Shown in pieces: positions 1 to 53,882 of a DNA stretch of 64,000 bases. Under the pieces are notes generated by a model. That model saw nothing but the letters and a program-made list of their open reading frames with translations. It searched no databases and had not been told where the DNA came from. The first letter of the stretch is position 1; the number at the start of each line of letters is the position of its first letter. A program made the translations under genes and the position numbers. Source of the DNA: Trypanosoma brucei (taxonomy: Eukaryota); NCBI GenBank assembly GCA_000002445.1, contig CM000207.1, forward strand, positions 2,272,001 through 2,336,000, read 5' to 3'.

Positions 1-988
1 CTATATCTATATCTATATCTATATATATCTATATATGCAAATATAATTATACTATAGCTTATGGTTTTCTTGCATATCTGTATAAGCGCGTTGGGGTTCT
101 TGATGGGTGCTTTCATGGCTTATACGTGCTCGTTTCTCCCGTTCATTTTTACGCAGTCGGACAATTTCATGTCGCTCTTTCCATTGCAATTACTCATTTT
201 CATTTTACACATCACTTTCTTACACATATAGGCGCTTTAAAGTCTGCTGCCCGCCGTTTTCAATGGCGGTCGGCATGCCCCTCTACATGCCTACTGAGCA
301 GGCGGACGGGCCCCGGCATGGCAACACCAAATATCCCCTTTCAGGGTTTCGCCTCATTTTGCCGATGTTCTTAACCTGGTTATACCCGCAATATGCCAGC
401 TGCACGTTCAGTTCGTGATGTTATATACTTTTCCAATTTTGGGGCCGGCCCCCGCCCAATCATCACCCGCCGCTAATAAACGGCGGCAGCAATAACAGCG
501 AGCATACCGCCGGCCAGCCACAGAGCCGAAAGAAGCCGGCCTGCGCGCCCCTATTCATGTTATTAGCCGCCATTAAGCATTATATTACACTCAGCTCAAC
601 CGTCCTTCTTCTTTGCGTTGTTGTTGTCGCCGTTGTGTTCTATATAAAGTTTATCGGCGGAGGCGCCCCTGGCTCCTCCCCATCACCCCCTGCCCACCCT
701 CCAAAATCTGGCCGCCGCCGGCTGGTCCTGGCGCGCCCCAGAAACGCGTTTCTTTTATTGTTGGTTGATTGCCTTAATGTTCTGTTGCAGATGGCGATTC
801 ACCATTAAGCATTTAATATTTTAGAAATAAGAGAGCGCTGGTAAAAGACGGCGGGTCGCCGCCCACATGGTGGTTGCCGTTATGCACTATACCCCATGTA
901 GTATATATGCGGCCCCGCTTATTCCGCCCCCCTCCCCCATAACGCCTTAAGCACAAGACCCCTTTGTTTCCCATAAGTCTACCGACAC

Positions 989-1068
989 GTTTCTGGCACG
1001 ACAGTAAAATATGGCAAGTGTCTCAAAACTGCCTGTACAGCTTATTTTTGGGACACACCCATGCTTTC
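989..1068 (+). promoter_or_regulatory. SL RNA gene upstream promoter region (RNA pol II; position expected for the bipartite upstream element plus initiator). Equivalent regions lie at 2351-2430, 3747-3826, 5129-5208 and 6513-6592.
   Basis: This block sits at -80 to -1 relative to each SL gene and is conserved in all five copies. In T. brucei the SL promoter elements lie within about 70 bp upstream. The motifs themselves were not verified. Confidence 0.5.
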
Positions 1069-1213
1069 AACTAACGCTATTATTAGAACAGTTTCTGTAC
1101 TATATTGGTATGAGAAGCTCCCAGTAGCAGCTGGGCCAACACACGCATTTGTGCTGTTGGTTCCCGCCGCATACTGCGGGAATCTGGAAGGTGGGGTCGG
1201 ATGACCTCCACTC
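1069..1213 (+). ncRNA. SLRNA: SL RNA gene, copy 1. Mini-exon 1069-1107, splice-donor GT at 1108, and about 105 nt of intron up to the T-tract.
   Basis: AACTAACGCTATTATTAGAACAGTTTCTGTACTATATTG/GTATGAGAAGCTCCCAGTAGCAGCTGGGCCAACACACGCATTTGTGCTGTTGGTTCCCGCCGCATACTGCGGGAATCTGGAAGGTGGGGTCGGATGACCTCCACTC is followed by T5AT8. This matches the known T. brucei SL RNA of about 140 nt. Confidence 0.93.
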
Positions 1214-1262
1214 TTTTTATTTTTTTTATTTTTTTTATTTATTTTTTTTGATTTTTTTTATT
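1214..1262 (+). terminator. T-tract immediately 3' of the SL RNA gene (T5AT8AT8AT3AT8GAT8A). It is the presumptive SL RNA termination signal. Equivalents follow every full copy, at about 2576, 3972 and 5354.
   Basis: Long oligo(T) runs begin exactly where SL RNA homology ends. Kinetoplastid SL RNA transcription is known to terminate in a downstream T-tract. Confidence 0.55.
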
Positions 1263-1270
1263 TGCTATGC

Positions 1271-1364
1271 TGACACACACACTCACACACACTCACTCAC
1301 TCATATATATATATATATATATTTCTTTATTTATTTATTTGTTTATTTATTTATTTGTTTGTTT

Positions 1365-1395
<31 letters not shown>

Positions 1396-1400
1396 TATGC
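1271..1400. repeat. Compound microsatellite block inside each SL spacer: (CACT/CA)n, (TA)n, (TTTA/TTTG)n, (TATC)n, (TA)n. The tract lengths differ between units and account for the 1362-1396 bp unit-length variation. Equivalent blocks lie at about 2633-2800, 4027-4180, 5407-5565 and 1-40.
   Basis: This can be read directly from the sequence. For example, the (TATC)n tract is 5 units long in unit 1 and 8 or more in unit 2. Confidence 0.9.
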
Positions 1401-2430
1401 AAATATAATTATACTATAGCTTATGGTTTTCTTGCATATCTGTATAAGCGCGTTGGGGTTCTTGATGGGCGCTTTCATGGCTTATACGTGCTCGTTTCTC
1501 CCGTTCATTTTTACGCAGTCGGACAATTTCATGTCGCTCTTTCCATTGCAATTACTCATTTTCATTTTACACATCACTTTCTTACACATATAGGCGCTTT
1601 AAAGTCTGCTGCCCGCCGTTTTCAATGGCGGTCGGCATGCCCCTCTACATGCCTACTGAGCAGGCGGACGGGCCCCGGCATGGCAACACCAAATATCCCC
1701 TTTCAGGGTTTCGCCTCATTTTGCCGATGTTCTTAACCTGGTTATACCCGCAATATGCCAGCTGCACGTTCAGTTCGTGATGTTATATACTTTTCCAATT
1801 TTGGGGCCGGCCCCCGCCCAATCATCACCCGCCGCTAATAAACGGCGGCAGCAATAACAGCGAGCATACCGCCGGCCAGCCACAGAGCCGAAAGAAGCCG
1901 GCCTGCGCGCCCCTATTCATGTTATTAGCCGCCATTAAGCATTATATTACACTCAGCTCAACCGTCCTTCTCCTTTGCGTTGTTGTTGTCGCCGTTGTGT
2001 TCTATATAAAGTTTATCGGCAGAGGCGCCCCTGGCTCCTCCCCATCACCCCCTGCCCACCCTCCAAAATCTGGCCGCCGCCGGCTGGTCCTGGCGCGCCC
2101 CAGAAACGCGTTTCTTTTATTGTTGGTTGATTGCCTTAATGTTCTGTTGCAGATGGCGATTCACCATTAAGCATTTAATATTTTAGAAATAAGAGAGCGC
2201 TGGTAAAAGACGGCGGGTCGCCGCCCACATGGTGGTTGCCGTTATGCACTATACCCCATGTAGTATATATGCGGCCCCGCTTATTCCGCCCCCCTCCCCC
2301 ATAACGCCTTAAGCACAAGACCCCTTTGTTTCCCATAAGTCTACCGACACGTTTCTGGCACGACAGTAAAATATGGCAAGTGTCTCAAAACTGCCTGTAC
2401 AGCTTATTTTTGGGACACACCCATGCTTTC

Positions 2431-2575
2431 AACTAACGCTATTATTAGAACAGTTTCTGTACTATATTGGTATGAGAAGCTCCCAGTAGCAGCTGGGCCA
2501 ACACACGCATTTGTGCTGTTGGTTCCCGCCGCATACTGCGGGAATCTGGAAGGTGGGGTCGGATGACCTCCACTC
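2431..2575 (+). ncRNA. SLRNA: SL RNA gene, copy 2
   Basis: Identical to copy 1 and offset from it by +1362 bp. Confidence 0.93.
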
Positions 2576-3826
2576 TTTTTATTTTTTTTATTTTTTTTAT
2601 TTATTTTTTTTGATTTTTTTTATTTGCTATGCTGACACACACACTCACACACACTCACACACACTCACTCACTCATATATATATATATATATATATATAT
2701 TTCTTTATTTATTTATTTGTTTATTTATTTATTTGTTTGTTTATATCTATATCTATATCTATATCTATATCTATATCTATATATATCTATATATGCAAAT
2801 ATAATTATACTATAGCTTATGGTTTTCTTGCATATCTGTATAAGCGCGTTGGGGTTCTTGATGGGCGCTTTCATGGCTTATACGTGCTCGTTTCTCCCGT
2901 TCATTTTTACGCAGTCGGACAATTTCATGTCGCTCTTTCCATTGCAATTACTCATTTTCATTTTACACATCACTTTCTTACACATATAGGCGCTTTAAAG
3001 TCTGCTGCCCGCCGTTTTCAATGGCGGTCGGCATGCCCCTCTACATGCCTACTGAGCAGGCGGACGGGCCCCGGCATGGCAACACCAAATATCCCCTTTC
3101 AGGGTTTCGCCTCATTTTGCCGATGTTCTTAACCTGGTTATACCCGCAATATGCCAGCTGCACGTTCAGTTCGTGATGTTATATACTTTTCCAATTTTGG
3201 GGCCGGCCCCCGCCCAATCATCACCCGCCGCTAATAAACGGCGGCAGCAATAACAGCGAGCATACCGCCGGCCAGCCACAGAGCCGAAAGAAGCCGGCTT
3301 GCGCGCCCTTATTCATGTTATTAGCCGCCATTAAGCATTATATTACACTCAGCTCAACCGTCTTTATTCTTTGCGTTGTTGTTGTCGCCGTTGTGTTCTA
3401 TATAAAGTTTATCGGCGGAGGCGCCCCTGGCTCCTCCCCATCACCCCCTGCCCACCCTCCAAAATCTGGCCGCCGCCGGCTGGTCCTGGCGCGCCCCAGA
3501 AACGCGTTTCTTTTATTGTTGGTTGATTGCCTTAATGTTCTGTTGCAGATGGCGATTCACCATTAAGCATTTAATATTTTAGAAATAAGAGAGCGCTGGT
3601 AAAAGACGGCGGGTCGCCGCCCACATGGTGGTTGCCGTTATGCACTATACCCCATGTAGTATATATGCGGCCCCGCTTATTCCGCCCCCCTCCCCCATAA
3701 CGCCTTAAGCACAAGACCCCTTTGTTTCCCATAAGTCTACCGACACGTTTCTGGCACGACAGTAAAATATGGCAAGTGTCTCAAAACTGCCTGTACAGCT
3801 TATTTTTGGGACACACCCACGCTTTC

Positions 3827-3971
3827 AACTAACGCTATTATTAGAACAGTTTCTGTACTATATTGGTATGAGAAGCTCCCAGTAGCAGCTGGGCCAACAC
3901 ACGCATTTGTGCTGTTGGTTCCCGCCGCATACTGCGGGAATCTGGAAGGTGGGGTCGGATGACCTCCACTC
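3827..3971 (+). ncRNA. SLRNA: SL RNA gene, copy 3
   Basis: Identical SL exon and intron. The upstream flank has one substitution (CCCACGCTTTC versus CCCATGCTTTC). Confidence 0.92.
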
Positions 3972-4057
3972 TTTTTATTTTTTTTATTTTTTTTATTTAT
4001 TTTTTTTGATTTTTTTTATTTGCTATGCTGACACACACACTCACACACACTCACTCA

Positions 4058-4092
<35 letters not shown>

Positions 4093-5208
4093 TTATTTAT
4101 TTATTTGTTTATTTATTTATTTGTTTGTTTATATCTATATCTATATCTATATCTATATCTATATATATCTATATATGCAAATATAATTATACTATAGCTT
4201 ATGGTTTTCTTGCATATCTGTATAAGCGCGTTGGGGTTCTTGATGGGCGCTTTCATGGCTTATACGTGCTCGTTTCTCCCGTTCATTTTTACGCAGTCGG
4301 ACAATTTCATGTCGCTCTTTCCATTGCAATTACTCATTTTCATTTTACACATCACTTTCTTACACATATAGGCGCTTTAAAGTCTGCTGCCCGCCGTTTT
4401 CAATGGCGGTCGGCATGCCCCTCTACATGCCTACTGAGCAGGCGGACGGGCCCCGGCATGGCAACACCAAATATCCCCTTTCAGGGTTTCGCCTCATTTT
4501 GCCGATGTTCTTAACCTGGTTATACCCGCAATATGCCAGCTGCACGTTCAGTTCGTGATGTTATATACTTTTCCAATTTTGGGGCCGGCCCCCGCCCAAT
4601 CATCACCCGCCGCTAATAAACGGCGGCAGCAATAACAGCGAGCATACCGCCGGCCAGCCACAGAGCCGAAAGAAGCCGGCCTGCGCGCCCCTATTCATGT
4701 TATTAGCCGCCATTAAGCATTATATTACACTCAGCTCAACCGTCCTTCTTCTTTGCGTTGTTGTTGTCGCCGTTGTGTTCTATATAAAGTTTATCGGCAG
4801 AGGCGCCCCTGGCTCCTCCCCATCACCCCCTGCCCACCCTCCAAAATCTGGCCGCCGCCGGCTGGTCCTGGCGCGCCCCAGAAACGCGTTTCTTTTATTG
4901 TTGGTTGATTGCCTTAATGTTCTGTTGCAGATGGCGATTCACCATTAAGCATTTAATATTTTAGAAATAAGAGAGCGCTGGTAAAAGACGGCGGGTCGCC
5001 GCCCACATGGTGGTTGCCGTTATGCACTATACCCCATGTAGTATATATGCGGCCCCGCTTATTCCGCCCCCCTCCCCCATAACGCCTTAAGCACAAGACC
5101 CCTTTGTTTCCCATAAGTCTACCGACACGTTTCTGGCACGACAGTAAAATATGGCAAGTGTCTCAAAACTGCCTGTACAGCTTACTTTTGGGACACACCC
5201 ATGCTTTC

Positions 5209-5353
5209 AACTAACGCTATTATTAGAACAGTTTCTGTACTATATTGGTATGAGAAGCTCCCAGTAGCAGCTGGGCCAACACACGCATTTGTGCTGTTGG
5301 TTCCCGCCGCATACTGCGGGAATCTGGAAGGTGGGGTCGGATGACCTCCACTC
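5209..5353 (+). ncRNA. SLRNA: SL RNA gene, copy 4
   Basis: Identical SL exon and intron. The upstream flank has CTTACTTTTG where copies 1 and 2 have CTTATTTTTG. Confidence 0.92.
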
Positions 5354-5443
5354 TTTTTATTTTTTTTATTTTTTTTATTTTATTTTTTTTGATTTTTTTT
5401 ATTTGCTATGCTGACACACACACTCACACACACTCACTCACTC

Positions 5444-5474
<31 letters not shown>

Positions 5475-5526
5475 ATATATATATTTCTTTATTTATTTAT
5501 TTGTTTATTTATTTATTTGTTTGTTT

Positions 5527-5557
<31 letters not shown>

Positions 5558-6592
5558 TATGCAAATATAATTATACTATAGCTTATGGTTTTCTTGCATA
5601 TCTGTATAAGCGCGTTGGGGTTCTTGATGGGCGCTTTCATGGCTTATACGTGCTCGTTTCTCCCGTTCATTTTTACGCAGTCGGACAATTTCATGTCGCT
5701 CTTTCCATTGCAATTACTCATTTTCATTTTACACATCACTTTCTTACACATATAGGCGCTTTAAAGTCTGCTGCCCGCCGTTTTCAATGGCGGTCGGCAT
5801 GCCCCTCTACATGCCTACTGAGCAGGCGGACGGGCCCCGGCATGGCAACACCAAATATCCCCTTTCAGGGTTTCGCCTCATTTTGCCGATGTTCTTAACC
5901 TGGTTATACCCGCAATATGCCAGCTGCACGTTCAGTTCGTGATGTTATATACTTTTCCAATTTTGGGGCCGGCCCCCGCCCAATCATCACCCGCCGCTAA
6001 TAAACGGCGGCAGCAATAACAGCGAGCATACCGCCGGCCAGCCACAGAGCCGAAAGAAGCCGGCCTGCGCGCCCCTATTCATGTTATTAGCCGCCATTAA
6101 GCATTATATTACACTCAGCTCAACCGTCCTTCTCCTTTGCGTTGTTGTTGTCGCCGTTGTGTTCTATATAAAGTTTATCGGCAGAGGCGCCCCTGGCTCC
6201 TCCCCATCACCCCCTGCCCACCCTCCAAAATCTGGCCGCCGCCGGCTGGTCCTGGCGCGCCCCAGAAACGCGTTTCTTTTATTGTTGGTTGATTGCCTTA
6301 ATGTTCTGTTGAAGATGGCGATTCACCATTAAGCATTTAATATTTTAGAAATAAGAGAGCGCTGGTAAAAGACGGCGGGTCGCCGCCCACATGGTGGTTG
6401 CCGTTATGCACTATACCCCATGTAGTATATATGCGGCCCCGCTTATTCCGCCCCCCTCCCCCATAACGCCTTAAGCACAAGACCCCTTTGTTTCCCATAA
6501 GTCTACCGACACGTTTCTGGCACGACAGTAAAATATGGCAAGTGTCTCAAAACTGCCTGTACAGCTTACTTTTGGGACACACCCATGCTTTC

Positions 6593-6651
6593 AACTAACG
6601 CTATTATTAGAACAGTTTCTGTACTATATTGGTATGAGAAGCTCCCAGTAG
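6593..6651 (+). pseudogene. Truncated terminal SL RNA gene. It keeps the 39-nt exon plus 20 nt of intron, then diverges (GAATTATCCG where intact copies have CAGCTGGGCC). This is the 3' boundary of the SL array.
   Basis: The upstream promoter-like flank is intact and identical to copy 4. Homology to the intact copies stops after ...GCTCCCAGTAG at 6651. Confidence 0.85.
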
Positions 6652-7049
6652 GAATTATCCGTACTTGGGGTCAATTTTTCGGGAAGAGAAAGAAGTAAGA
6701 AATCGCTGCATTTATGATATCGATAGGAAAGGAAGGAAAACCTCAAAACCAAAAAAGTCTTGTTTTGGGGGTTCGAACCCGGACCTCCAAAACACAAACA
6801 CAATTAGGAGAGGAGTGTTGCCAGTTGGGCTCTTTCGACAAATCGGAGGAAAAATTGAAAATTTATGCTCAGATGAAATATACCAAATCGTACATATCGA
6901 AGAGAAAAAACATAGGTGTACAAACGGTGCACACGTAGAAAAAAGTAGCGGAATTGATAGAACTCAGGTAAATAAACCCATTACAGAAATCAGCGGATCA
7001 GTTTCTTTCTTGGGACAGAATATCGGGAGGTTGGATGTCAAAAAGTCAC

Positions 7050-8920
7050 CCGAAAATGAATATTTAGAAAAAATCAACTGTGGTCAAAACGACATAATGA
7101 CCACAAAAAATTGTCGCTACGCAGACTTTCGTAGCGCATTTGAAAGGGCTCGACCAGCCCAATGCATGAGTAACAACGGTTACTGCGACAAAGAGGTCAC
7201 AAAAAAATTAGGTGCTGCCGAACCTAAAATTTTTTCAAAAAATGGAAATTTTGAAAAAATTAACCGTGGTCAAAACGACATGACGACCACAAAAAATTGT
7301 CGCTACGCAGACTTTCGTAGCGCATTTGAAAGGGCTCGACCAGCCCAATGCATGAGTAACAACGGTTACTGCGACAAAGAGGTCACAAAAAAATTAGGTG
7401 CTGCCGAACCTAAAATTTTTTCAAAAAATGGAAATTTTGAAAAAATTAACCGTGGTCAAAACGACATGACGACCACAAAAAATTGTCGCTACGCAGACTT
7501 TCGTAGCGCATTTGAAAGGGCTCGACCAGCCCAATGCATGAGTAACAACGGTTACTGCGACAAAGAGGTCACAAAAAAATTAGGTGCTGTCGAACCTAAT
7601 ATTTTTTCAAAAAATGGAAATTTTGAAAAAATTAACCGTGGTCAAATCGACATGACGACCACAAAAAATTGTCGCTACGCAGACTTTCGTAGCGCATTTG
7701 AAAGGGCTCGACCAGCCCAATGCATGAGTAACAACGGTTACTGCGACAAAGAGGTCACAAAAAAATTAGGTGCTGCCGAACCTAAAATTTTTTCAAAAAA
7801 TGGAAATTTTGAAAAAATTAACCGTGGTCAAATCGACATGACGACCACAAAAAATTGTCGCTACGCAGACTTCCGTAGCGCATTTGAAAGGGCTCGACCA
7901 GCCCAATGCATGAGTAACAACGGTTACTGCGACAAAGAGGTCACAAAAAAATTAGGTGCTGTCGAACCTAATATTTTTTCAAAAAATGGAAATTTTGAAA
8001 AAATTAACCGTGGTCAAAACGACATGACGACCACAAAAAATTGTCGCTACGCAGACTTTCGTAGCGCATTTGAAAGGGCTCGACCAGCCCAATGCATGAG
8101 TAACAACGGTTACTGCGACAAAGAGGTCACAAAAAAATTAGGTGCTGTCGAACCTAATATTTTTTCAAAAAATGGAAATTTTGAAAAAATTAACCGTGGT
8201 CAAATCGACATGACGACCACAAAAAATTGTCGCTACGCAGACTTTCGTAGCGCATTTGAAAGGGCTCGACCAGCCCAATGCATGAGTAACAACGGTTACT
8301 GCGACAAAGAGGTCACAAAAAAATTAGGTGCTGTCGAACCTAATATTTTTTCAAAAAATGGAAATTTTGAAAAAATTAACCGTGGTCAAATCGACATGAC
8401 GACCACAAAAAATTGTCGCTACGAAGACTTCCGTAGCGCATTTGAAAGGGCTCGACCAGCCCAATGCATGAGTAACAACGGTTACTGCGACAAAGAGGTC
8501 ACAAAAAAATTAGGTGCTGTCGAACCTAATATTTTTTCAAAAAATGGAAATTTTGAAAAAATTAACCGTGGTCAAATCGACATGACGACCACAAAAAATT
8601 GTCGCTACGCAGACTTCCGTAGCGCATTTGAAAGGGCTCGACCAGCCCAATGCATGAGTAACAACGGTTACTGCGACAAAGAGGTCACAAAAAAATTAGG
8701 TGCTGTCGAACCTAATATTTTTTCAAAAAATGGAAATTTTGAAAAAATTAACCGTGGTCAAATCGACATGACGACCACAAAAAATTGTCGCTACGCAGAC
8801 TTCCGTAGCGCATTTGAAAGGGCTCGACCAGCCCAATGCATGAGTAACAACGGTTACTGCGACAAAGAGGTCACAAAAAAATTAGGTGCTGTCGAACCTA
8901 ATATTTTTTCAAAAAATGGA
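7050..8920 (+). repeat. 186-bp tandem satellite, about 10 copies, + orientation. The unit is ...AAAATTGTCGCTACGCAGACTTTCGTAGCGCATTTGAAAGGGCTCGACCAGCCCAATGCATGAGTAACAACGGTTACTGCGACAAAGAGGTCACAAAAAAATTAGGTGCTG(C/T)CGAACCTAA(A/T)ATTTTTTCAAAAAATGGAAATTTTGAAAAAATTAACCGTGGTCAAA(A/T)CGACATGACGACCAC
   Basis: The exact period is 186 bp; for example, GGTCAAAACGACAT occurs at 7082 and again at 7268. Each unit contains a perfect 7-bp stem hairpin, CGCTACG-N8-CGTAGCG. The six-frame ORF 6665..8971 is a periodic 62-aa repeat. Confidence 0.9.
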
Positions 8921-9149
8921 AACCATTTTTTTGCGACCAATTTTTATTTGAGCATTGCAATGGTCTATTGAAATTCGTGAAAATGCACTACTCGGATCTT
9001 CGTAGTGATCACTTTTTCGACCAGCTGCAATGTTGGAAATTTGCCTTTTTTCATCAATTTTTGATGTTTTCGGCTTTTTCCCCCTCTCTATATTTCTTGT
9101 TGCTTCGTTATGACAATAACCGTTGTTATTGCCTAATTCTACTCGTCCA
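8921..9149. repeat. Degenerate junction between the two oppositely oriented satellite blocks. It holds decayed + copies and then decayed - copies, and the orientation switches near 9050-9150.
   Basis: There is diverged + orientation unit-like sequence (TTCGTAGTGATCACTTTTTCGACCAGCTGCAATG) at about 8990-9040. There is diverged - orientation unit-like sequence (GCGCTACGGAAGTCTGCGTAGAAACCATG) at about 9160-9190. Confidence 0.7.
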
Positions 9150-11762
9150 TTCCGTGTAAATGCGCTACGGAAGTCTGCGTAGAAACCATGTTTATCGTTT
9201 TTGTCGGCCTGCGAAATTTGCTCTTTTTCTTTATTTTTTGAGCATTTTTCTTTTCCAACCGCCCCTATTTTTCTTATGACCTCTTTGTCGCAGTAACCGT
9301 TGTTACTCATGCATTGGGCTGGTCGAGCCCTTTCAAATGCGCTACGAAAGTCTGCGTAGCGACAATTTTTTGTGGTCGTCATGTCGATTTGACCACGGTT
9401 AATTTTTTCAAAATTTCCATTTTTTGAAAAAATATTAGGTTCGACAGCACCTAATTTTTTTGTGACCTCTTTGTCGCAGTAACCGTTGTTACTCATGCAT
9501 TGGGCTGGTCGAGCCCTTTCAAATGCGCTACGGAAGTCTGCGTAGCGACAATTTTTTGTGGTCGTCATGTCGATTTGACCACGGTTAATTTTTTCAAAAT
9601 TTCCATTTTTTGAAAAAATATTAGGTTCGACAGCACCTAATTTTTTTGTGACCTCTTTGTCGCAGTAACCGTTGTTACTCATGCATTGGGCTGGTCGAGC
9701 CCTTTCAAATGCGCTACGGAAGTCTTCGTAGCGACAATTTTTTGTGGTCGTCATGTCGTTTTGACCACGGTTAATTTTTTCAAAATTTCCATTTTTTGAA
9801 AAAATATTAGGTTCGACTGCACCTAATTTTTTTGTGACCTCTTTGTCGCAATAACCGTTGTTACTCATGCATTGGGCTGGTCGAGCCCTTTCAAATGCGC
9901 TACGGAAGTCTTCGTAGCGACAATTTTTTGTGGTCGTCATGTCGTTTTGACCACGGTTAATTTTTTCAAAATTTCCATTTTTTGAAAAAATATTAGGTTC
10001 GACAGCACCTAATTTTTTTGTGACCTCTTTGTCGCAATAACCGTTGTTACTCATGCATTGGGCTGGTCGAGCCCTTTCAAATGCGCTACGGAAGTCTGCG
10101 TAGCGACAATTTTTTGTGGTCGTCATGTCGTTTTGACCACGGTTAATTTTTTCAAAATTTCCATTTTTTGAAAAACTTTTAGGTTCGGCAGCACCTAATT
10201 TTTTTTGTGACCTCTTTGTCGCAATAACCGTTGTTACTCATGCATTGGGCTGGTCGAGCCCTTTCAAATGCGCTACGGAAGTCTGCGTAGCGACAATTTT
10301 TTGTGGTCGTCATGTCGATTTGACCACGGTTAATTTTTTCAAAATTTCCATTTTTTGAAAAAATATTAGGTTCGACAGCACCTAATTTTTTTGTGACCTC
10401 TTTGTCGCAGTAACCGTTGTTACTCATGCATTGGGCTGGTCGAGCCCTTTCAAATGCGCTACGGAAGTCTTCGTAGCGACAATTTTTTGTGGTCGTCATG
10501 TCGTTTTGACCACGGTTAATTTTTTCAAAATTTCCATTTTTTGAAAAAATATTAGGTTCGACTGCACCTAATTTTTTTGTGACCTCTTTGTCGCAATAAC
10601 CGTTGTTACTCATGCATTGGGCTGGTCGAGCCCTTTCAAATGCGCTACGGAAGTCTTCGTAGCGACAATTTTTTGTGGTCGTCATGTCGTTTTGACCACG
10701 GTTAATTTTTTCAAAATTTCCATTTTTTGAAAAAATATTAGGTTCGACAGCACCTAATTTTTTTGTGACCTCTTTGTCGCAGTAACCGTTGTTACTCATG
10801 CATTGGGCTGGTCGAGCCCTTTCAAATGCGCTACGGAAGTCTTCGTAGCGACAATTTTTTGTGGTCGTCATGTCGTTTTGACCACGGTTAATTTTTTCAA
10901 AATTTCCATTTTTTGAAAAAATATTAGGTTCGACTGCACCTAATTTTTTGGCGACCTCTTTGTCGCAATAACCGTTGTTACTCATGCATTGGGCTGGTCG
11001 AGCCCTTTCAAATGCGCTACGGAAGTCTGCGTAGCGACAATTTTTTGTGGTCGTCATGTCGATTTGACCACGGTTAATTTTTTCAAAATTTCCATTTTTT
11101 GAAAAAATATTAGGTTCGACAGCACCTAATTTTTTTGTGACCTCTTTGTCGCAGTAACCGTTGTTACTCATGCATTGGGCTGGTCGAGCCCTTTCAAATG
11201 CGCTACGAAAGTCTGCGTAGCGACAATTTTTTGTGGTCGTCATGTCGATTTGACCACGGTTAATTTTTTCAAAATTTCCATTTTTTGAAAAAATATTAGG
11301 TTCGACAGCACCTAATTTTTTTGTGACCTCTTTGTCGCAGTAACCGTTGTTACTCATGCATTGGGCTGGTCGAGCCCTTTCAAATGCGCTACGGAAGTCT
11401 GCGTAGCGACAATTTTTTGTGGTCGTCATGTCGATTTGACCACGGTTAATTTTTTCAAAATTTCCATTTTTTGAAAAAATATTAGGTTCGACAGCACCTA
11501 ATTTTTTTGTGACCTCTTTGTCGCAGTAACCGTTGTTACTCATGCATTGGGCTGGTCGAGCCCTTTCAAATGCGCTACGGAAGTCTTCGTAGCGACAATT
11601 TTTTGTGGTCGTCATGTCGTTTTGACCACGGTTAATTTTTTCAAAATTTCCATTTTTTGAAAAAATATTAGGTTCGACTGCACCTAATTTTTTGGCGACC
11701 TCTTTGTCGCAATAACCGTTGTTACTCATGCATTGGGCTGGTCGAGCCCTTTCAAATGCACT
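9150..11762 (-). repeat. The same 186-bp satellite, about 14 copies, inverted (- orientation). Together with the + block it forms a head-to-head, palindrome-like arrangement.
   Basis: The reverse complement of the unit is repeated with period 186. The minus-strand ORFs 8909..10126 and 10179..11729 translate to the same 62-aa periodic peptide as the + strand ORF. Confidence 0.9.
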
Positions 11763-12796
11763 ACTTGAATGTTTGTGACGAGTTTTTGCTTTCTACTTCA
11801 TTGATAAGGGGAAATTCTTCATTTTACCTTTTCTTGACATTTTTTTTTTTGCCTCTCAGCCCTTTTACCTCTTTACCCTTATTTTCTTGTAAATAACTGT
11901 TGGTACTATCGGAAATATTTGGCCGATTTTTTGCAAGAGCTATCACTAAATGTTTATGAAGGTATATGGGTACAAAGGCAAAAATACCAGAGTGTGGAAA
12001 ATATCATCATAGCAATACTAGGGGCAAGTATTCAAAATTCGATCACATCGGAAGCTTCAACCATTTCGGATGATCAGAGCACGTATTTCAACTTATTCAA
12101 CGAGATCTTTCCACTGTATATAACACCGATTCTTCAAAGAAAGTGTTTTTAAAGGCCACAGCGGGGGAAGGGCAAAAACAGGAAAATTATATGAAAAAAT
12201 GAAGGATCAAAAATGAGTTCAACGATATTCAAAAACCTAACCATTTCGACTGGTCAGATAGTGCTTTTCAAAGATCTCAATTGAATTATTTTTAAACACA
12301 ATATCTGACCGGTCGTAATGGTTAGGTTTTTGAATATCGTCGAACTCATTTTAATTTATACTTTGTGCCTTCCCCCCATTTTGTGGGTGACTTTCTTTTT
12401 CAGGTCCCCTCATCTTTTCTTCCACATGTTGAAAAGGATAACCATAGCGCAATATAGATATACATATCCAAGGCCAGTGAAATCCCCTTTCTTTGAATAC
12501 ACCATCATTTATTTCTTTAAAGGCTAACGTTTAATTTATTTTCTTCTGGCGCTGAATATAATTTTTTTCTTCTCCATTTTTTAGTCTCTTTTTTCTGAGG
12601 TGGCCAGCCTTACCTTTTTTAGCTTCGACCAGTGGAGAATGGTTCGAACCGCCAGATGTGTTTCTCCTAATTCAAAATTATCTCGTTTCCGTAAAGTCGT
12701 TACACGCAATATCAATCGTCAAGGCAGATTAAAAAAACTGTTCTAATAGTATCTTATCACTTATTTTCATTGGTTTTTCTGTTTCCATATATTATT

Positions 12797-14176
12797 TTAG
12801 AGCCTTCTGGCTTTCTCCATTGCCTCTGCCGCACTGTAAACGTGAACATTCCCGCGGAGGACGGCTGCCACCACATCCGCAGTTATCCCGTCGAATGCGG
12901 TGGTTACCGTAAGTCGGTGGTCCTGGCCCCGGAGGACGCGGCGAAGCCAGTCACGACTTTTGCCGAAAATAGCACCGTTTGTAAGCATAACAAATGGTGC
13001 GAAGGCCAGTCCATTTTGTATCGCCCAGTAGCTGTACTTGCGCTCCTTTTCCTGGAAGCGCACCAATGCGGCTTTCATTGGATCTGCCGCAGCTACTGAG
13101 CGCTGACCTTGGGCGGTGTTTCCGACGGTCACGCGCCCTGGATACGTCACCGTGATGTCCGTCACCGCGTACGTATCCAACCCCGCAATGAGGATGTCCG
13201 GCCTCCTCTTGCTCACCTCATTTAGGCGTGGTTCCGTCGCGCACTGGAACCCACAGAGGCGAAGGCCGTTTGCGAACACGCTGTTAATGATGTCGTGTCG
13301 CATCTGCCTGGGTTTATTGTGCACTTTGGTGCACGTGTGGATGTGGTGATTGCTCGCGTCTTCACCACATAGGCATTTGACCCCCTCCGGTAGTACCCTC
13401 ACAAGTAAACGTTCCCGCAGGTACACTCCGAAAGTGGCGTCGTCCAGCCTCACCTGAGCATCCGTGAGGGGCCTGCCAGCTCCGGCGGCGGTATTGGCTG
13501 TAAAGACTTGACGATCAGCACCCCCAAGGGTGGCGTAGAGGTCGTCTTGCTGTCTTTGGTCAGCCTCCTCCGTCTTCCTCTGCTGGAGACCTTTCTCTCC
13601 GGCGCACTGGTGGGCGTACTCTGCCACTTGGGCCATCCGCCTAATTCCACAGCCACCCATGCTCACGGGCAGCGCCGCTATATTCCGGGCCCTTTCGGTC
13701 ATGGGTTGCCCGAGAATATGCTCCATTACCTGGGTGGTCCTCTCATCGAACCAGGAAGCCACCCGGTGTGTGTGTTGCATATCGTGGTTCCGCAACAGGA
13801 ATGTGATCCTTGGCATTGCCGACATCGCCAGAATCCTCCATCGTGTCCTGTTGTAGAGGGGTAGCTCCACGATTGCCTTGAAGAGGCGGTCTGTTTCCAT
13901 CACCTTCTTCACCCCCTCCCGAATCTCCTCGCTCATTGGATCCGGGGCCACGTACGCTCCAAGAACTCGCGCACACGCCTTCACCGCTGTCCCAAAGCCT
14001 GTGTCCCCAGTCAGTTCGAGGACCTCGGTTTTGTCCGCATTGTTGACGATTCCGAGTTTCTCTATCTGTTGGGCTATCGTCTTGTAAGCATGTTGTAGCT
14101 TATCTGGTGTTGCTGGTACCATGATATCGAGTAGATACGCCGTAAAGTGCTTGTTGGATTCTTTGCTGCGAGTCAT
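12797..14176 (-). pseudogene. Reverse-transcriptase C-terminal fragment (motif C onward plus Cys/His domain) of the degenerate retroelement.
   Basis: It is a 459-aa ORF. The catalytic YADD is mutated to YLLD, and the ORF starts just upstream of motif C with no RT N-terminal half in frame. Confidence 0.5.
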
Positions 14177-16316
14177 GAAGCGTTTTTAGAGTGATCGAAA
14201 AAACCAAGGACTCTGGTGCCATCCCCTGTCTTACTCTCTTCCCGTATATTGCCATTTTTGGCGGAGTCGCCCGTTTTCGTAAAAGCTCACTGCTCCTGCT
14301 GATCCATGGAAGGGGTGGACGAGGCGCTCTGGCGGGGACCACGCAGCGTCTTCATACACTGCTGTCAGTAATGTGCGTCTGTGGATGGCATTGTACGCGG
14401 TCCGACCATCCAGCATGGCCACACTGTCCTGTAGCCACGTTATCTAATCTTTCGCAGCCGTTCGCCCTGAGTTGCATTGATCGGTCCAACACGCCTTTTC
14501 ATATGGGGGCGGTGTTCGACTATATTGATGGTGAAATAGTGGCGAGTGGCGCCGGCTTTGCGTATACTCTATCCACCTCTGTTGTTCTGTCTTTTTTTGC
14601 TTGTTTTTTTGCTCTCTGCTATCATTAGGAGATGTAGAGAATCTTGTCAAGAAGTAGTTCTGCTTGGAGCGATGTTGCTATGCATTCTTCGTGGTTAGAG
14701 GGAATTCCCAATGGGCGAAGCAAATTAAAAGTGTCACAGATTTGCGTAACATGTCTACGTCGTGGGCACAGACGCATGAACTGTGTGGGCTTCTGAAACC
14801 GCAATCTGGTATATTCCCGAAAAAAGCGCATGGTCGGTGGCGCCAAACCCACCGCCAAATGAGTGAATTCTGTGAACGGATGTCTTGTGAGCTGAGTTCG
14901 CAAGTGGATGACAGTAACAACGATAAAAAACATTGCACTGTAATGCGTGAAACAGTGAGGGTCAACGTCGTTTTTTTCCTGTTTTAACAAACCTCCAACC
15001 TTTATGCCCTCAGTATTGAAAGAAATAACGTTGCATTTACCGTGAAGGGGTGCATTCACACCGTTTGGAAGTTCAGATCACCGGAGTGGCAGTGAACAGT
15101 ACGCCAAAAGCCTCCCCTCCCGTAGCGGTGCCGTGGCTGGTTGGAGAGGCATTGGTGAAGCGATCCTGAGCGTCCCTAAAAAGGAAGTGAAGGACAGGTG
15201 CTGAGCCGGTTTTGGACGCTCCATGTAATTTTCTGAGGAACTGTTGTTGTGCTTTACAACCGCTGCTACCACATGCAAATTGCTTTGCATAAGGGGAAGT
15301 TACACAATTTTGACTCGTTTGCGGATCGATCAAAAGTGGTGCAGCCCTCGGCACCCCGCTCTCTGTATCACAGCAACACGAATAACGGCAACACCCAGCA
15401 TAAAAGGGAATCCCAGTGACCAAGTCCAATCCCTCTCCTTACACAGCTTCAGCACTTGTTGCCGCGGTGGGCTCAAATGTATTGCCCTCTCGTAGCCAAG
15501 AGCGGGGCGTCCGAAGAAGTAAGTTGATGAAGAAGGTTCTCCGAAAGGCACCGCTGAAGTGAGTCAAAAACGAGAGGGCGAGGAAATGCCAGTAAGGGGT
15601 AGAAAGGGATCTATAGGGTAAATTGGAGCTGAAGCTCAGTGTACCGGATGGTCTCATGAAGCAGGCAAAGTGTGGAAATCTACCAGAGCTCGGGTGTATG
15701 GTCTTAACGCATGTGACGCGAATGCATTCCGAGGCCACCGTGCGGGCTCTAGGATCTGTTTTGTGGCTGCGCAGCAAAACTGAAGGTGAAAATAGGAAAC
15801 CACCGGCGTCCTCGCTGCGGCAGGACACCGGCAAGGTGAGTTTAGCTGCCGTTTTACCATGGGGGATGTGTACCGTTACGCAGAAAACAGCACTTGCACA
15901 GAGTTAGAGCGTGTAGGTCGGCAACCATTGAGCCATACAATCGAGTGCAGCGCTAGGGGAACGAGGAGGAAGCATTGGGTAGCAAATTTGAGTGAGCGCG
16001 CGCTGAATATCTGGGTGGGATTAGTGAAGTTCCTTACAGCATTGTCGCACCCCGATGATTCGGTTTCCCTGTAATTCATAGTCACAGCCTTTTTTGTGGG
16101 CGTATCATCCAGTGTGTCTTTGTGGAGGAAGTACGAGACGGATACGAGTGCTGTTGCGGTCATTGTTATTTTCTGCTGTGTTGCTGTTATTGTTGTTTCC
16201 TCGGTTAGATTAAGTGGTTTATCTCGTTGTTCTCGTCTCCTGCTAGAAGTGCGTTCCTGCAGTGTTTTTTTTTCATTGTTTGCTGTGTTCCTTTCGGTAT
16301 AGTACCGTGTGCGCAT
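12797..16316 (-). mobile_element. Degenerate non-LTR (ingi/DIRE-like) retrotransposon remnant. The 3' portion is still a 459-aa ORF. The 5' portion has decayed into a tiled series of short minus-strand ORFs broken by stops and frameshifts.
   Basis: The N-terminus of the 459-aa ORF reads FTAYLLDIMV...(28 aa)...LGIVNNADKTEVLEL. This matches the reverse-transcriptase motif C (F-x-A-Y-A-D-D-I, here decayed to YLLD) followed by the conserved G-h-x-h-N-x-x-K-T-x-h-h block of non-LTR RTs. A C-terminal Cys/His cluster (CLCGEDASNHHIHTC) is present. Contiguous minus-strand ORFs (14100-14342, 14231-14422, 14444-14650, 14625-15059, 15073-15429, 15439-15834, 15876-16316) tile the upstream region. Confidence 0.55.
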
Positions 16317-17393
16317 GCCAAGGTCTTCATGTCAATCTTTTCTCCATTTGCTGTATCGTTTTTTTACCGTTATGCAAAGGGTGTTTCCCTTATGTTCTTT
16401 TGTACAGCGGGTGCCTTCTCTACCCACGTCACTCCTCCTCACTAACACTGACTCGTAGAAAGTCTGCACAGTTTATATGTGCTACGAGTAATAGGATTCA
16501 TTCCCAACATTGCTTCTGACTTGTACTCATTTTTCATCACTATCATGTTTTACGTCTGCGTATAACCAGAGATAGGTGTCGCACGCAGGTACCATTAGGA
16601 AAAGAGACTTATGTGGGCTTCTGGCTCTCGTTTGGCGCCAGCCTTATCGAAGGCTACTAGGCTTCAGTTAGGTAATATTAAAACGGAATATGGCTACGTA
16701 TCAACGGCAGCAGGTTCCCAAGAAAAATGGGGCTTCTTATTCAAGGGAAGAAGGTACCCGTTGATTAGCTGCGGATATTCCATATGCCTTGTTTGCATCG
16801 CCATAACGGTGGTGGGCACGTATCAGCAATACCGCGATATGATTATCATGACGGAGCACATATCTTACGAAGATGTAAAGGACCGATGTCTGACACCGAT
16901 GCCTGGGTGGGCGCGCCTTCGAAGCCTGCAGATCGCTAGTCCACTTGGTCCGATGACATATCGAGACCCAACACCGCTGGATTGGCTGCCATTTGAGCTG
17001 AAACTTGGTTGTGTTAAGCAAGCATCGTACTAGGGAACGCATTATGCTACATTTGGTGTTTTAGGTGATCAAAATTTTGATGGGTGCTTTGGCGGAAAAA
17101 AGGAAAGGATATCGCGGAGAATAGAAGAACCGATAGCATGAGGTTGATACTTGATAGGGGTTAAGGTGGCGTATGACTTTATCGTAGTGAAACGGCGTCA
17201 GGGGTATTGGGTACATTATTTCTTGTTTTTTTTCGACGGATTTTTGCGATTGTATCTGCTCCGTTTCTGACACTGTTTCCGGCGTTGTCCCTCCCACACC
17301 CAAAGAGTTCTTCTTTCGTTGCTACTGTTAGTTTTCATCGCAGCTCATTGTTCCTGGTATTTTGAAATAGCTGTAGTTTTTTTAAAAAAAGGG

Positions 17394-24072: not shown

Positions 24073-24293
24073 ATCCGCGCTGATATGCTGCGGAAAATTG
24101 TGCTGTGTTGAATGGGAGTATCCAGCGTTTAAGCCGCAGTACGGCTACTCAGATGCCGCCTGGCCACCTGGGGTTAAAACTTTGTTCTGCGTGGGTAGGC
24201 TGTTGAGTACTCACTTGGCCATCCTCTCCATTCCCTTCTCCCCCTTTCTTTCACTTAGTTTAGTCGTTTCCTTTCTTTGGAAGCCACCATTGG

Positions 24294-50299: not shown

Positions 50300-53200
50300 A
50301 AATTATGCCGATTGTCTTCCATGTGGTGAACCAATCCCTGAAAGGAAGATGTAGAAGGAAAGAAAAAGAAAAAATAAAATAAAAGGAATGCGCACGGTGT
50401 ATATATGAGTATGTGTATGAATATGCTTTTATTCTTATTTATTTATCATCATCTTTTTTTTTACTGTTATTATTTTATATTTCTCTGCTACGTTCTTTTT
50501 TTTTTGTTATTGTTATCATTCCTACCATTATTATTATTATTATTACCATTATCACTATTACGATTAATACGTTTTTTTTTGTTTTCTTTAGGAAATTTGT
50601 TACGTCAGTCCATTTGTTTACTTAATTTTTTCCTTATTTTTTTTCTTTCCTTCATTCTGAAAGAGAAAAAAAAGGAGAGAAACGATGATTTTTCTTTTTC
50701 GATATGCTTGTTTTTTATTTTATTTTATTTTTCCTCCGAGATTTGTGGACATCAGCGTTATTAACTCACCATGTAGTTAAGGAAAGTAAAGTTAGGTATT
50801 TAAGGGAAATGAATGAGTGATGCATGAAGAAGTTATTTTTAAAATAAAAAGATATATATATATATATATATATAAACAAAATTTAAAAAAAAAAGATGAC
50901 GGAAAAGGCATATGCGTATGTGAAAGTGTATCGGTATTGGTATTGGTGGTTTGGGAAAAAATAATGAGTGGTGAAAACAACGGCAACATTTGAAAATAAA
51001 ATGAACAAAAACTGAGGTATATATATATATATTTATTTATTTAGCCGTCTGTATGTGTGTGTGTGTGTCTGCGTGTGTTTTTATTTATTTATTTATTACC
51101 TTAAATTTTATTCATTTTTTTCTCTTTCTTTATTTCTTTCTCACCGTCTCCACCATTTTCCTCAGCATATGTTTTTCTGATGTTATTTTTGTGTATTTTT
51201 GATTGCTTTGTTTTACCATCTCTTTTTTCTTTTCTTTTCCTTTTTTCCTTTTTTTGGTTTTTTTGTTTTTTATGTTTCGTTTTTTTTTTAATATTATTTT
51301 ATATTATAAGTTTTGTTAATCAACTTTTATCGAACAGTGTCGATGAGTCGGTAAGAGTTGATTGAGGTGTGCAGGTAGTCCCTCCCCCCTCCAAAAAAAA
51401 AAATTTTTAATTCGAAACACACGCCACCGCACGGAACGGAAAAGTGAATAATAAAAAAAAAAGGAAAAAAGGAAAAGAAAAGAAAAGGAAAACATATTAA
51501 TCAATGAAACAAAAAAAAGGGGGAAATAATAATAGTAACGATGATAGTAAAATAATAAGAATAACACATATATGTTTGTAGTTGTATGAATGGATGTGTA
51601 ATGAGCGGTTACAATACGGACATCAATGAAACAAACAAACAAACAAGAAGGAAAGAGGGAGAAATTAATGTACACATGTGTGTGAGCATATGTTAATGGA
51701 AAGAACAGGAAGGCACAACTGTGAAACTCAAAGTATGAAAAGCAAAAAAAAAAAAAGAAAAAATTGCGGCTACCGAATGATTCATATAATTTCTTTTCTT
51801 TCTCTTCTTTTTATTGTTGATGACGTAAAAAGCGTACATATGTTTTCCTGTTTCTACCACTGAAAAATGCAACACACGAACACACACGCACATGTATAAA
51901 AACATATTGGATTTATTGCTTATTCACTTTATTTATTTAGTAATTTATATGGAAGGAAACATAACTTCGGGAGTTTGATAGTGAAGAGGAGAAGGAAGGA
52001 GAAACAATTCGTGATGATTTATTTATTATTTTTTTTACAAAATAAAAGCGGTTATTAATTCTTTTTTCCCCTTTTCCTTTCTTTCTTTCTTTATTTTTTT
52101 TTCCTTTCCTTTCGTCGTTGTTGCTGTTTCCTTTTTTCATTTTTCCCAAAACTTCCTCCCCGACTATTCTTACGCGAATACAAAAATGCAAACATCTTTA
52201 TTTTATTTTTAATGTTTTTTTTTCCTTTTCTTTACGTCGTCATTATTATCATTATTATTATTACACATGCACACACATGTTCATTTCCGTTGTTTTTGCC
52301 GTTTGTTTGTTTATTTATTTGTCGTTTTATTTTTATTTTTGCTCTCGCGTTTGTGATTTTGTTTTGTTTGTTTGCCTTTATTTTGATATTATTACTTTAT
52401 ATATATTTATATATTTATATATATATATATATTATCATATATGAAAATATATGTGTTTTACTTCCGTCGCTGCTGCAGAGGTCCATTTTGTTTCTCTCAC
52501 AACTGTATATTTAAATTAAATAAATATATATATATATATAAATATATGTAAATATATAAATAAATATAAATATATATATATATATTTCCAATGAAATGTA
52601 AGAAGGGAAAGGGAGGAGGAGGAGGAGGGGGGAAGGGGGAAAGGGGAGAAAAAATAGAGAGAAATTATAAAAAAGAGTTTAAAAAACCAAATAAATCAAA
52701 TCAAATCAAATTAAATCAAATCAATAAATAATTAAACGTGTGGGCACAAGTATGTATGAAATAAAATACAATGAACCGATTTGGTATGATTTTATTTGAA
52801 CTGAAGGTGCAACACAGAGGAAGAATTATAAAGTTTTCGGAGGGGAAAAAAAAAATAGAAATAAAAGGAAAGAAAGAAATGCACACATATACATGCATGC
52901 GCATATGCCCTCGAACGAAACAGGGAAAAAAAAATCGAAAGTGTAAATGAAAATTAAAATGACAGTTGTGACGAACTGATCATATGAATGAAAGCACGCG
53001 TATTTTTTTTCCCCCCTTTTCTTTTCTGATGTGCGTGTTTTTGTGTGCATAATTTTTTTGTTTGTTTATTTTTGTTTTATTTGTTGCCTTATGTTACGCA
53101 GGAAAGAATGAAAGGAAAATAATATAGTTATAAAATAAATAATGAAATGAAATGAAATGAAGTGAAGTGACACAATATGATACTATGAAATTATGTGGGA

Positions 53201-53880
53201 GAAAAATAAAAAAAAGTATATATGAAAGATGAGGGAATCGATATTTTGAATCGTGTGCACAAAAAAAAACGCAAGACAAACAGGTAATAGTAACAGTAAT
53301 AATAACTTAAGTACCTGCATGCATACATATATTTATATATAATTTGTATGAATATATATATATAATATGTATTTGTGTATGCGTGTGTTCTAACGGTGTA
53401 AGCTGTGCGGTCAAAAAGATATGACAAAGAAAACAAAAGAAGATTTTTTTTTAAAAAAAAAGAAAGCAATGCAATATAAAAGCAGAAAGAGCCACTGATA
53501 CTCTTCTGTACATGTGGGCGGCTGAAGGTACACTCCGTTCCTATTTTCCTCTTCTTAAAATGTTGTATTTTTATTATATTTGTGTTAACATTTGCTTGTG
53601 TCCACGCTGGTGTTGCTGTTGATTCTTTCCCTTTCCCTTTTTCTTATTTCTTTTTTTTTCTTTCTAATTTTGAACCTTGTGTCCGTCACTTCTTTACATC
53701 AACCCTTCGAAATATGAGAACAACGTAAGCGAAGGCAAGTGAAGAAAGGAGTAAGTGGAAGTGGAAGTGGAAGTGGGCAAAAGGGAGGAAATAAGCGCAG
53801 GCACAAAAGCACCAAAAGAAGAAAACAAATAAACAAAAAAAAAGAAAGGTGTTAAAACACTTGTCACTCACCTTCCACAA
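50300..53880. repeat. An AT-rich, low-complexity intergenic region of about 3.6 kb, packed with heterogeneous microsatellites: poly-T/poly-A, (TA)n, (TTTA)n, (GT)n, (ATTATT)n, AAATCAAATCAAATCA, (GAAGTG)n, (GGAGGA)n.
   Basis: This can be read directly from the sequence. No ORF longer than 120 aa is present. Both flanking genes are on the + strand. Confidence 0.8.
53620..53700 (+). promoter_or_regulatory. Polypyrimidine tract upstream of the Utp6-like gene. It is the presumptive trans-splicing and polyadenylation-coupling signal.
   Basis: CTTTCCCTTTCCCTTTTTCTTATTTCTTTTTTTTTCTTTCT lies about 200 nt upstream of the ATG at 53883. Kinetoplastid SL addition uses such tracts. Confidence 0.45.
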
Positions 53881-53882
53881 CA

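Follow-up and report, generated by a model that had tools for sequence, protein, structure and literature searches.

A mosaic fossil of the SLACS retrotransposon beside the spliced-leader RNA gene array of Trypanosoma brucei

We analyzed a 64,000-nucleotide (nt) stretch of Trypanosoma brucei DNA (GenBank assembly GCA_000002445.1, contig CM000207.1, positions 2,272,001 to 2,336,000 of the forward strand; hereafter the window, whose own numbering is used throughout) for the nature of a degenerate retrotransposon lying on its minus strand. Sequence comparison essentially settles its identity as a dead, truncated copy of SLACS, a member of the CRE clade of retrotransposons without long terminal repeats (non-LTR). 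The fragment is a mosaic of two ages, with a block that has drifted far from active SLACS joined sharply to one that is nearly identical to it. The best explanation is probably an ancient SLACS insertion that was later patched by gene conversion from active copies. The open reading frame (ORF), the SLACS family, its spliced-leader (SL) target, and its endonuclease architecture were all known already, and the GenBank annotation carries the SLACS name. The new detail is the sharp mosaic and its reading as gene conversion, a modest observation on the dynamics of transposon fossils. Searchable literature returned nothing specific on chimeric or out-of-array SLACS or on SLACS gene conversion.

SLACS, CZAR, and CRE1/2 make up the CRE clade, in which the reverse transcriptase (RT) is followed by a CCHC knuckle and a PD-(D/E)xK restriction-like endonuclease (RLE), and these elements insert in SL mini-exons with target-site duplications (PMC12278014, PMC3636483). 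The insertion point of SLACS and CZAR lies between SL nt 11 and 12 (PMC5814959). SLACS is present in 16–18 near-identical copies of 6.8 kb each (PMC3447711).

The most conspicuous part of the fossil is a 459-amino-acid (aa) minus-strand ORF at 12797–14176, whose ATG stands 10 codons before the string FTAYLLDIMV (FTAYLLD at 14146–14126). An earlier note on this DNA, made from the letters alone, had described such an ORF beginning at RT motif C, and it is indeed there. Its product is 100% identical to XP_827645.1/EAN77315.1, a putative SLACS reverse transcriptase of T. brucei brucei TREU927, and its remaining homologs are all SLACS/CZAR-like trypanosome proteins. A family hidden Markov model (HMM) built from 18 sequences matched the window in three collinear pieces which together span model positions 384–867 of 871, namely 14443–14234 (E = 4e-19), a weak piece at 14351–14103 that recovers motif B past a frameshift, and 14185–12800 (E = 1e-181). 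The last of these makes the RT homology overwhelming. The earlier diagnosis of a dead non-LTR retrotransposon fragment with a crippled motif C was right. With the full-length SLACS ORF2 (P15594, 1182 aa) as a tblastn query, residues 642–1176 align to 14425–12821 and residues 1–641 have no match anywhere in the window. Pfam returned no match to the 459-aa ORF alone because the ORF begins downstream of most of the RVT_1 model. A frame-stitched translation covering motifs A–C matched RVT_1 at E = 1.3e-6 and 28.7 bits, just below the Pfam cut-off of 29.6 bits, with an intact relative scoring 65.3 bits. Both the stitched RVT_1 match and the family HMM thus supply the RT signal expected of a retrotransposon. 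Neither phmmer with the ORF nor the whole-ORF family profile found anything relevant among PDB sequences.

The RT motifs record the damage. Motif C reads YLLD in the fossil, its first catalytic Asp having become Leu, a change common to the T. b. gambiense DAL972 and T. b. equiperdum copies. All intact relatives (T. equiperdum, T. b. gambiense, T. congolense, T. conorhini, T. vivax, and T. cruzi) read FTAYLDDVTV, and therefore the ancestral motif was YLDD; the earlier note had recognized the mutation correctly and had taken YADD as the starting point. The LGIVNNADKTEVL block that follows motif C is conserved family-wide, and a Cys/His cluster lies downstream of it. Directly upstream of the ORF, in shifted frames, are a motif-A-like string, AMLDGRTAYNAIH, and a motif-B-like string, RVRQGMAPESLVF. 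Stops interrupt the ORF frame here at 14233–14231 and 14188–14186, and indels have put motif B in another frame.

Alignment to a SLACS contig of T. equiperdum (L001) revealed the two-age structure. Homology is collinear from 14452 to 12827 (L001 1002–2637). The young block (14057–12827; L001 1404–2637), which holds the distal RT/thumb, a linker, the CCHC knuckle, and the RLE, is 99.6% identical to L001, with five substitutions and one in-frame 3-nt indel in 1,231 nt. The old block (14452–14058), a decayed part of ORF2 recognized by alignment and HMM as carrying RT motifs A, B, and C (P15594 ~636–770), has 135 mismatches in 392 aligned nt plus indels, or ~66% identity. The junction between them is sharp and in register (L001 1403/1404). 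Divergence of the old block from active SLACS is 31/23/49% at codon positions 1/2/3, with 72 transitions to 63 transversions and no sign of hypermutation. The young patch differs from active copies at only 3 of 411 third positions. Since this identity reaches synonymous sites, it reflects recency and not purifying selection. The 459-aa ORF, which starts at an internal Met, is a chance-open remnant whose openness calls for no selection and is probably due only to the youth of the patch, which stands 0.4% from an intact ORF.

The mosaic recurs in other T. brucei subspecies. The same chimeric N-terminus and odd tail occur in T. b. gambiense DAL972 (P0035, 460 aa) and in T. b. equiperdum, where the locus is split into two separate gene models (P0034, 183 aa; P0036, 168 aa). 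The DAL972 locus (L002, FN554972.1) is collinear with window positions 24150–11780 over 12.4 kb at 98.5% identity. Divergence between TREU927 and DAL972 is 0.56–0.58% in flanking genes and unique DNA and 0.49% in the patch, which is the background rate, rising to 2.0% (8/395) in the old block and 6% in the satellite-adjoining flank (11780–12699). A single site separates the DAL972 patch from the active T. equiperdum copy, and the DAL972 fossil has the canonical state at all of the five substitutions and the indel that distinguish the TREU927 patch from L001. Only one informative polymorphism (R/Q138) is common to the fossil and active copies and bears on single versus recurrent conversion.

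The old block, by comparison, appears far older. Its protein identity is 53.5% to T. brucei SLACS versus 43–47% to the elements of T. cruzi, T. melophagium, and T. congolense, and canonical SLACS in the same region is 72–78% identical to those three. Canonical SLACS and the T. congolense element share 67.5% nt identity there, with differences of 25/12/55% at codon positions 1/2/3, so that the distance of the old block from active SLACS (66% identity) is about that between the T. brucei and T. congolense elements. The flatter codon profile of the old block (31/23/49%) results from a long unconstrained branch. On a rough, uncorrected reckoning from these sequences, its split would fall at 0.7–0.9 of the brucei/congolense divergence. 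Synteny of the locus is confined to T. brucei subspecies. A T. congolense contig contains several element pieces in series, one with a true poly(A)/SL junction, and a T. conorhini homolog follows a 1,435-aa ORF of the same element; both lie in non-syntenic contexts. The homologs in these species are element copies, and the ORF is not a conserved cellular gene.

Little of the element survives. DNA derived from the retroelement covers only 14452–12827, with a short tail and SL fragment continuing to 12735; this is about half of the 12797–16316 extent first proposed. The surviving ~1.6 kb represents ~24% of a 6.8-kb element and corresponds to ORF2 residues ~642–1176 of 1182. The 3′ half of ORF2 is the sole SLACS portion carried; ORF1 and the N-terminal 54% of ORF2, including RT motifs 0–2, are absent. 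At the other end the alignment breaks at 12827, right after ...NVHVYSAA, which is also where family conservation ends; beyond it, C-terminal tails are unalignable even among bona fide family members. The fossil finishes with nine non-canonical codons, EAMEKARRL*, where canonical SLACS ORF2 has the unrelated QARGETLR*, and these codons together with a 45-nt A-rich stretch occupy 12826–12752. Other than these 45 A-rich nt, no recognizable trace of the SLACS 3′ untranslated region (UTR, ~340 nt) or poly(A) exists at 12826–12500, so the fossil lacks the 3′ UTR ending in poly(A) that is expected of SLACS/CRE members. It likewise lacks complete coding capacity (ORF1 plus a 1182-aa ORF2 with YLDD). 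The stops, the YLLD motif, and the restriction to residues 642–1176 together identify it as a fossil and not an active member. It cannot be functional, having lost ORF1, N-terminal ORF2, and the 3′ UTR/poly(A), with motifs A–B broken and an Asp-to-Leu change in motif C.

The DNA between the fossil and the first plus-strand gene (14453–16316), where the earlier note saw the RT N-terminus and endonuclease as a ladder of stop-broken ORFs, is non-element DNA. Neither tblastn, run with 33 family proteins and full-length SLACS ORF2 (1182 aa), nor the family HMM showed SLACS similarity in it, and Pfam searches of 14453–16600, as single ORFs or as whole masked minus-strand frames, gave no RT, apurinic/apyrimidinic endonuclease (APE; Exo_endo_phos), or RNase H match. 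The CRE-clade endonuclease is C-terminal to the RT, here within the ORF, and the proposed upstream anatomy is wrong. The stretch is unique within the window and non-coding in appearance. The DAL972 annotation places three small hypothetical genes (146, 72, and 102 aa; L002 7858–8298, 8517–8735, and 9241–9549) in the corresponding DNA (window ~16316–14600, minus strand); none has a Pfam match, and in a strand-switch or transcription-start region such calls are probably over-predictions.

Clade assignment is reinforced by the C-terminal part of the ORF (aa 245–459, 13444–12800). A search with these last 215 residues gave 279 relatives (E ≤ 1e-3), many of them lying at the C-terminus of 1,000–2,300-aa proteins. 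Among 67 distant relatives, C268, C270, H278, C282, R293-H294, E315, R325, D327, D340, K377, and G401 (ORF numbering) are invariant or nearly so. The Cys/His cluster, which had been likened to an ingi/L1Tc-type tail, is real, and it is instead a C268-x-C270-x7-H278-x3-C282 knuckle (13375–13331) preceding the RLE and aligning with the CCHC of R2; every knuckle residue is kept in at least 96% of the 67. The catalytic-type residues D327 (13198–13196), D340, and K377 (13048–13046) are invariant in the family and intact in the fossil. A 40-sequence profile of the domain matched R2 proteins in the PDB (9nl3, 9dou, 8gh6, 9nl2, and 8ibw; E = 7e-13 to 1e-8) across the R2 C-terminal CCHC/(K/R)PD...D-V-x-V...K region; only this deeper, domain-only profile, and not the whole-ORF profile, reached R2. 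An AlphaFold model of the domain from the same alignment was confident (pLDDT 90.9, pTM 0.87), and its top seven Foldseek matches in the PDB were R2 proteins (E = 8e-7 to 1e-5, TM 0.58–0.68), followed by cap-snatching endonucleases and archaeal Hjc resolvases. A whole-ORF model from an 11-sequence alignment was unusable (pLDDT 38). The PD...D...K constellation thus sits on a predicted PD-(D/E)xK fold with a preceding CCHC knuckle. From profile and modeled fold, the domain is a predicted R2-type RLE and not an APE, and therefore assignment to ingi, DIRE, or L1Tc is excluded.

The surroundings of the fossil are those of the natural SLACS target. The SL RNA gene array occupies 1–6760 on the plus strand, with five exact SL copies at 1083, 2445, 3841, 5223, and 6607 and a period of 1362–1396 bp. 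The window then runs through a 186-bp satellite in two inverted arrays, ~1 kb of unique DNA, the ORF, and ~2.2 kb of unique DNA before a long plus-strand gene cluster begins near 16.6–17.4 kb. The fossil is therefore located between the repeat arrays and the first plus-strand gene, as the earlier note had it, just outside the SL array, and it runs opposite to the SL genes. An SL fragment (12751–12735, minus strand) follows the ORF stop by about 50 nt and corresponds to SL nt 10–26, with 16/17 nt matching and nt 13–26 exact. It is in the element's orientation, starts at the canonical SLACS/CZAR junction position (nt 11/12), and is the only minus-strand SL-like sequence in the window, as well as the sole one of either strand besides the five SL genes. 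By chance 0.02 such matches are expected, and 0–1 of 300 shuffles produced one. SL nt 27–39 and the intron are not recognizable beside it. This fragment is probably a remnant of the SL gene into which the element originally inserted.

These observations can be assembled into a history in which SLACS would anciently have inserted into an array-edge SL gene by target-primed reverse transcription, leaving the SL nt 13–26 fragment as a trace of that target gene. The inserted copy would then have been truncated and have decayed without constraint. Shortly before or during the T. brucei subspecies radiation, its central and 3′ part may have been overwritten by ectopic gene conversion from one of the 16–18 active SLACS copies in the nearby array. 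Conversion is favored over independent insertion, misassembly, or template switching by three things: the junction is in register, the patch has old, unique sequence on either side of it, and the arrangement is conserved across subspecies. Several points weigh against this history. The SL fragment is only a short match, scoring inside the shuffle range once the search space is widened. The 5′ flank (14453–15400) contains neither SL sequence nor a target-site duplication. The search for flanking duplications proposed in the earlier note thus came back empty, which is expected for a truncated or rearranged fossil and so counts against intactness, not ancestry. The missing 3′ UTR and poly(A) also count here. 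Conversion normally needs two-sided homology, and none is detectable past the 3′ edge at 12827, an edge that coincides with the start of the hypervariable C-terminal tail. Lastly, the DNA-level comparison with a donor uses the T. equiperdum copy, not TREU927's own copies.

Of the competing explanations, the likeliest, though still improbable, is that the chimera arose when RT switched templates from canonical SLACS RNA to a divergent SLACS-like RNA, or that it belongs to a distinct recombinant subfamily never patched in situ. Homologous switching would give an in-register junction, and the third > first > second codon gradient of the old block means that part of its divergence accrued under selection. 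The same gradient, however, is expected from the constrained active-lineage branch alone, and the old block carries stops and indels. Sequences of the T. brucei group form only two clusters, the canonical copies and this locus, with no second SLACS lineage found. Target-primed reverse transcription begins at the 3′ end, yet it is the 3′ tail that is non-canonical. We consider it very improbable that the 459-aa ORF is instead a domesticated host gene, a CCHC and RLE nuclease kept by selection with a dead RT stub. It is open in both TREU927 and DAL972 (459 and 460 aa), its RLE catalytic-type residues are all intact, and it lies downstream of an apparent divergent transcription start region. Against this, identity to active copies extends to the synonymous sites, the T. 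b. equiperdum locus is broken into two gene models, no syntenic ortholog exists outside T. brucei, and the start codon falls within decayed sequence.

A collapse of active-SLACS reads onto a uniformly diverged fossil in the TREU927 assembly would also create an apparent mosaic, and a near-identical repeat of 16–18 copies (PMC3447711) can confound Sanger-era assemblies. The probability of this is slighter still. The identical chimera, in both N-terminus and tail, is present in the independent DAL972 and T. b. equiperdum assemblies, and for this reason the mosaic is not an assembly artefact; the perfectly in-register junction and the background rate of TREU927–DAL972 differences in the patch agree. 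There is next to no chance that the element is a degenerate APE retroposon of the ingi/DIRE/L1Tc type, with an N-terminal endonuclease and RT in broken ORFs up to 16316, as the earlier note had suggested. A dead non-LTR RT with a Cys/His cluster would fit, and DIREs are common in T. brucei (PMC5814959). But all homologs are SLACS/CZAR-like, 14453–16600 is devoid of Exo_endo_phos, RNase H, and RT signal, the C-terminal domain is R2-type by profile and fold, and the Cys/His motif is C-x-C-x7-H-x3-C, not CX2CX12HX3-5H.

Relative to canonical SLACS, the fossil shares 99.6% nt identity over 1,231 nt, collinearity with ORF2 642–1176, the same CCHC and RLE, and a place beside the SL array, with SL sequence starting where the canonical junction lies. 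It differs in being only ~24% of 6.8 kb, in lying outside the array and inverted relative to the SL genes, in its ~34% diverged 5′ 395 nt with stops and frameshifts, in the YLDD to YLLD change, and in its last nine codons, 3′ UTR, poly(A), and target-site duplication, the first being non-canonical and the rest missing. CZAR of T. cruzi, CRE1/CRE2 of Crithidia, and the SLACS-like elements of T. congolense, T. vivax, and T. conorhini have the same domain order, the invariant motifs FTAYLDD, LGI..N..K.EVL, CCHC, and RRPD...D.TVT...K, and 47–74% aa identity. They are lineages of other species, whereas the fossil in the window is part of T. brucei's own SLACS lineage. A T. congolense SLACS-like copy retains a poly(A)/SL nt ~12–13 junction; its ~410-nt UTR and A22 have no recognizable counterpart in the fossil. 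R2 (R2Bm, R2Tg; PDB 8gh6, 9dou, 9nl3) likewise has a C-terminal CCHC and PD-(D/E)xK endonuclease and, like SLACS, is site-specific for a multicopy RNA gene. It belongs to another clade, targets 28S rDNA and not SL RNA genes, and has an RLE only ~17–19% identical; R2 usually leaves target deletions and CRE elements leave duplications (PMC3636483). Elements of the ingi clade have an N-terminal APE, C-terminal RNase H and C2H2 motifs, a Pr77 signature, and dispersed insertion (PMC12278014, PMC5814959). The likeness of the fossil to ingi, RIME, DIRE, and L1Tc goes as far as all being trypanosome non-LTR retroposons with many degenerate copies, and no APE, RNase H, or C2H2-type motif was found in the window element. 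Separately, the 1990 reference SLACS ORF2 (P15594) departs from all modern copies in frameshift-like blocks at ~784–794 and ~974–976 and in a Cys-to-Gly change at residue 999, the last CCHC cysteine. These oddities are most likely sequencing errors in the reference entry.

Several other features of the window were noted. The last SL gene (6594–6756) has its own downstream flank, unlike the internal repeats, and this flank matches, at 98.5% identity, the DNA that follows SLACS 3′ on the T. equiperdum contig (L001 3026–3161). It therefore seems that in T. equiperdum a SLACS copy sits in the last SL gene of the array, a gene that in the window is intact. Rfam 15 gave nothing at the gathering threshold for the five SL RNA genes (1083–6631), nor anything at E ≤ 1 for the terminal copy, and apparently it contains no model able to recognize kinetoplastid SL RNA. 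The 186-bp satellite arrays lie at 7053–8922 (plus) and 9233–11764 (inverted). Their arms, up to 1,565 nt long, 98% complementary, and ~310 nt apart, form a large potential hairpin or source of double-stranded RNA by the SL array. Tschudi et al. 2012 give seven long inverted repeats as sources of small interfering RNA (siRNA), none of them on chromosome 9. The satellite also contains ORFs of 405–624 aa, which are repeat artefacts. Their long minus-strand members qualify the claim that the fossil is the only minus-strand coding-like feature, a claim that is otherwise roughly right. We rejected an inverted duplication of the array edge past the satellite, as the flanks at 6633–7052 and 11765–12734 share only the SL fragment; the satellite arms are the only inverted repeats at the array edge. 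Strings of GGTTCGAACC at ~6775 and ~12645, in both satellite flanks, resemble a tRNA T-loop, and ARAGORN found no tRNA gene in 6000–17000. Elsewhere, a 3.6-kb AT-rich gap between two plus-strand genes (~50300–53900, GC 27–36%) contains only low-complexity (TA)n and T-rich repeats and far exceeds the window's other intergenic regions in size and AT content.

By analogy with piRNA clusters, an inverted, out-of-array fossil could in principle serve as a small trap, feeding antisense or sense SLACS ORF2 RNA into RNA interference (RNAi) that restrains SLACS; we regard this as a long shot. If it were so, recurrent conversion with active copies may keep the fossil partly fresh beside a probable divergent transcription start. 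The siRNA pseudogene Tb09.160.3400 of Tschudi et al. 2012, which is on chromosome 9, was rejected as a candidate for this locus, being described there without an identified parent gene.

The finding has little import for biology at large, as SLACS, its target, and its RLE architecture are textbook knowledge for trypanosomatids. For T. brucei itself, XP_827645.1 and its DAL972 counterpart are a non-functional chimeric fossil, which expression and siRNA mapping studies should handle as a pseudogene. The 1.23-kb patch will draw multi-mapping SLACS reads, and the 395-nt old block and the tail offer locus-specific tags. The 66%/99.6% mosaic would be a clean natural case in which an active transposon family and an old fossil near the SL array have undergone ectopic gene conversion, and it may be used to measure conversion among SLACS copies across strains.

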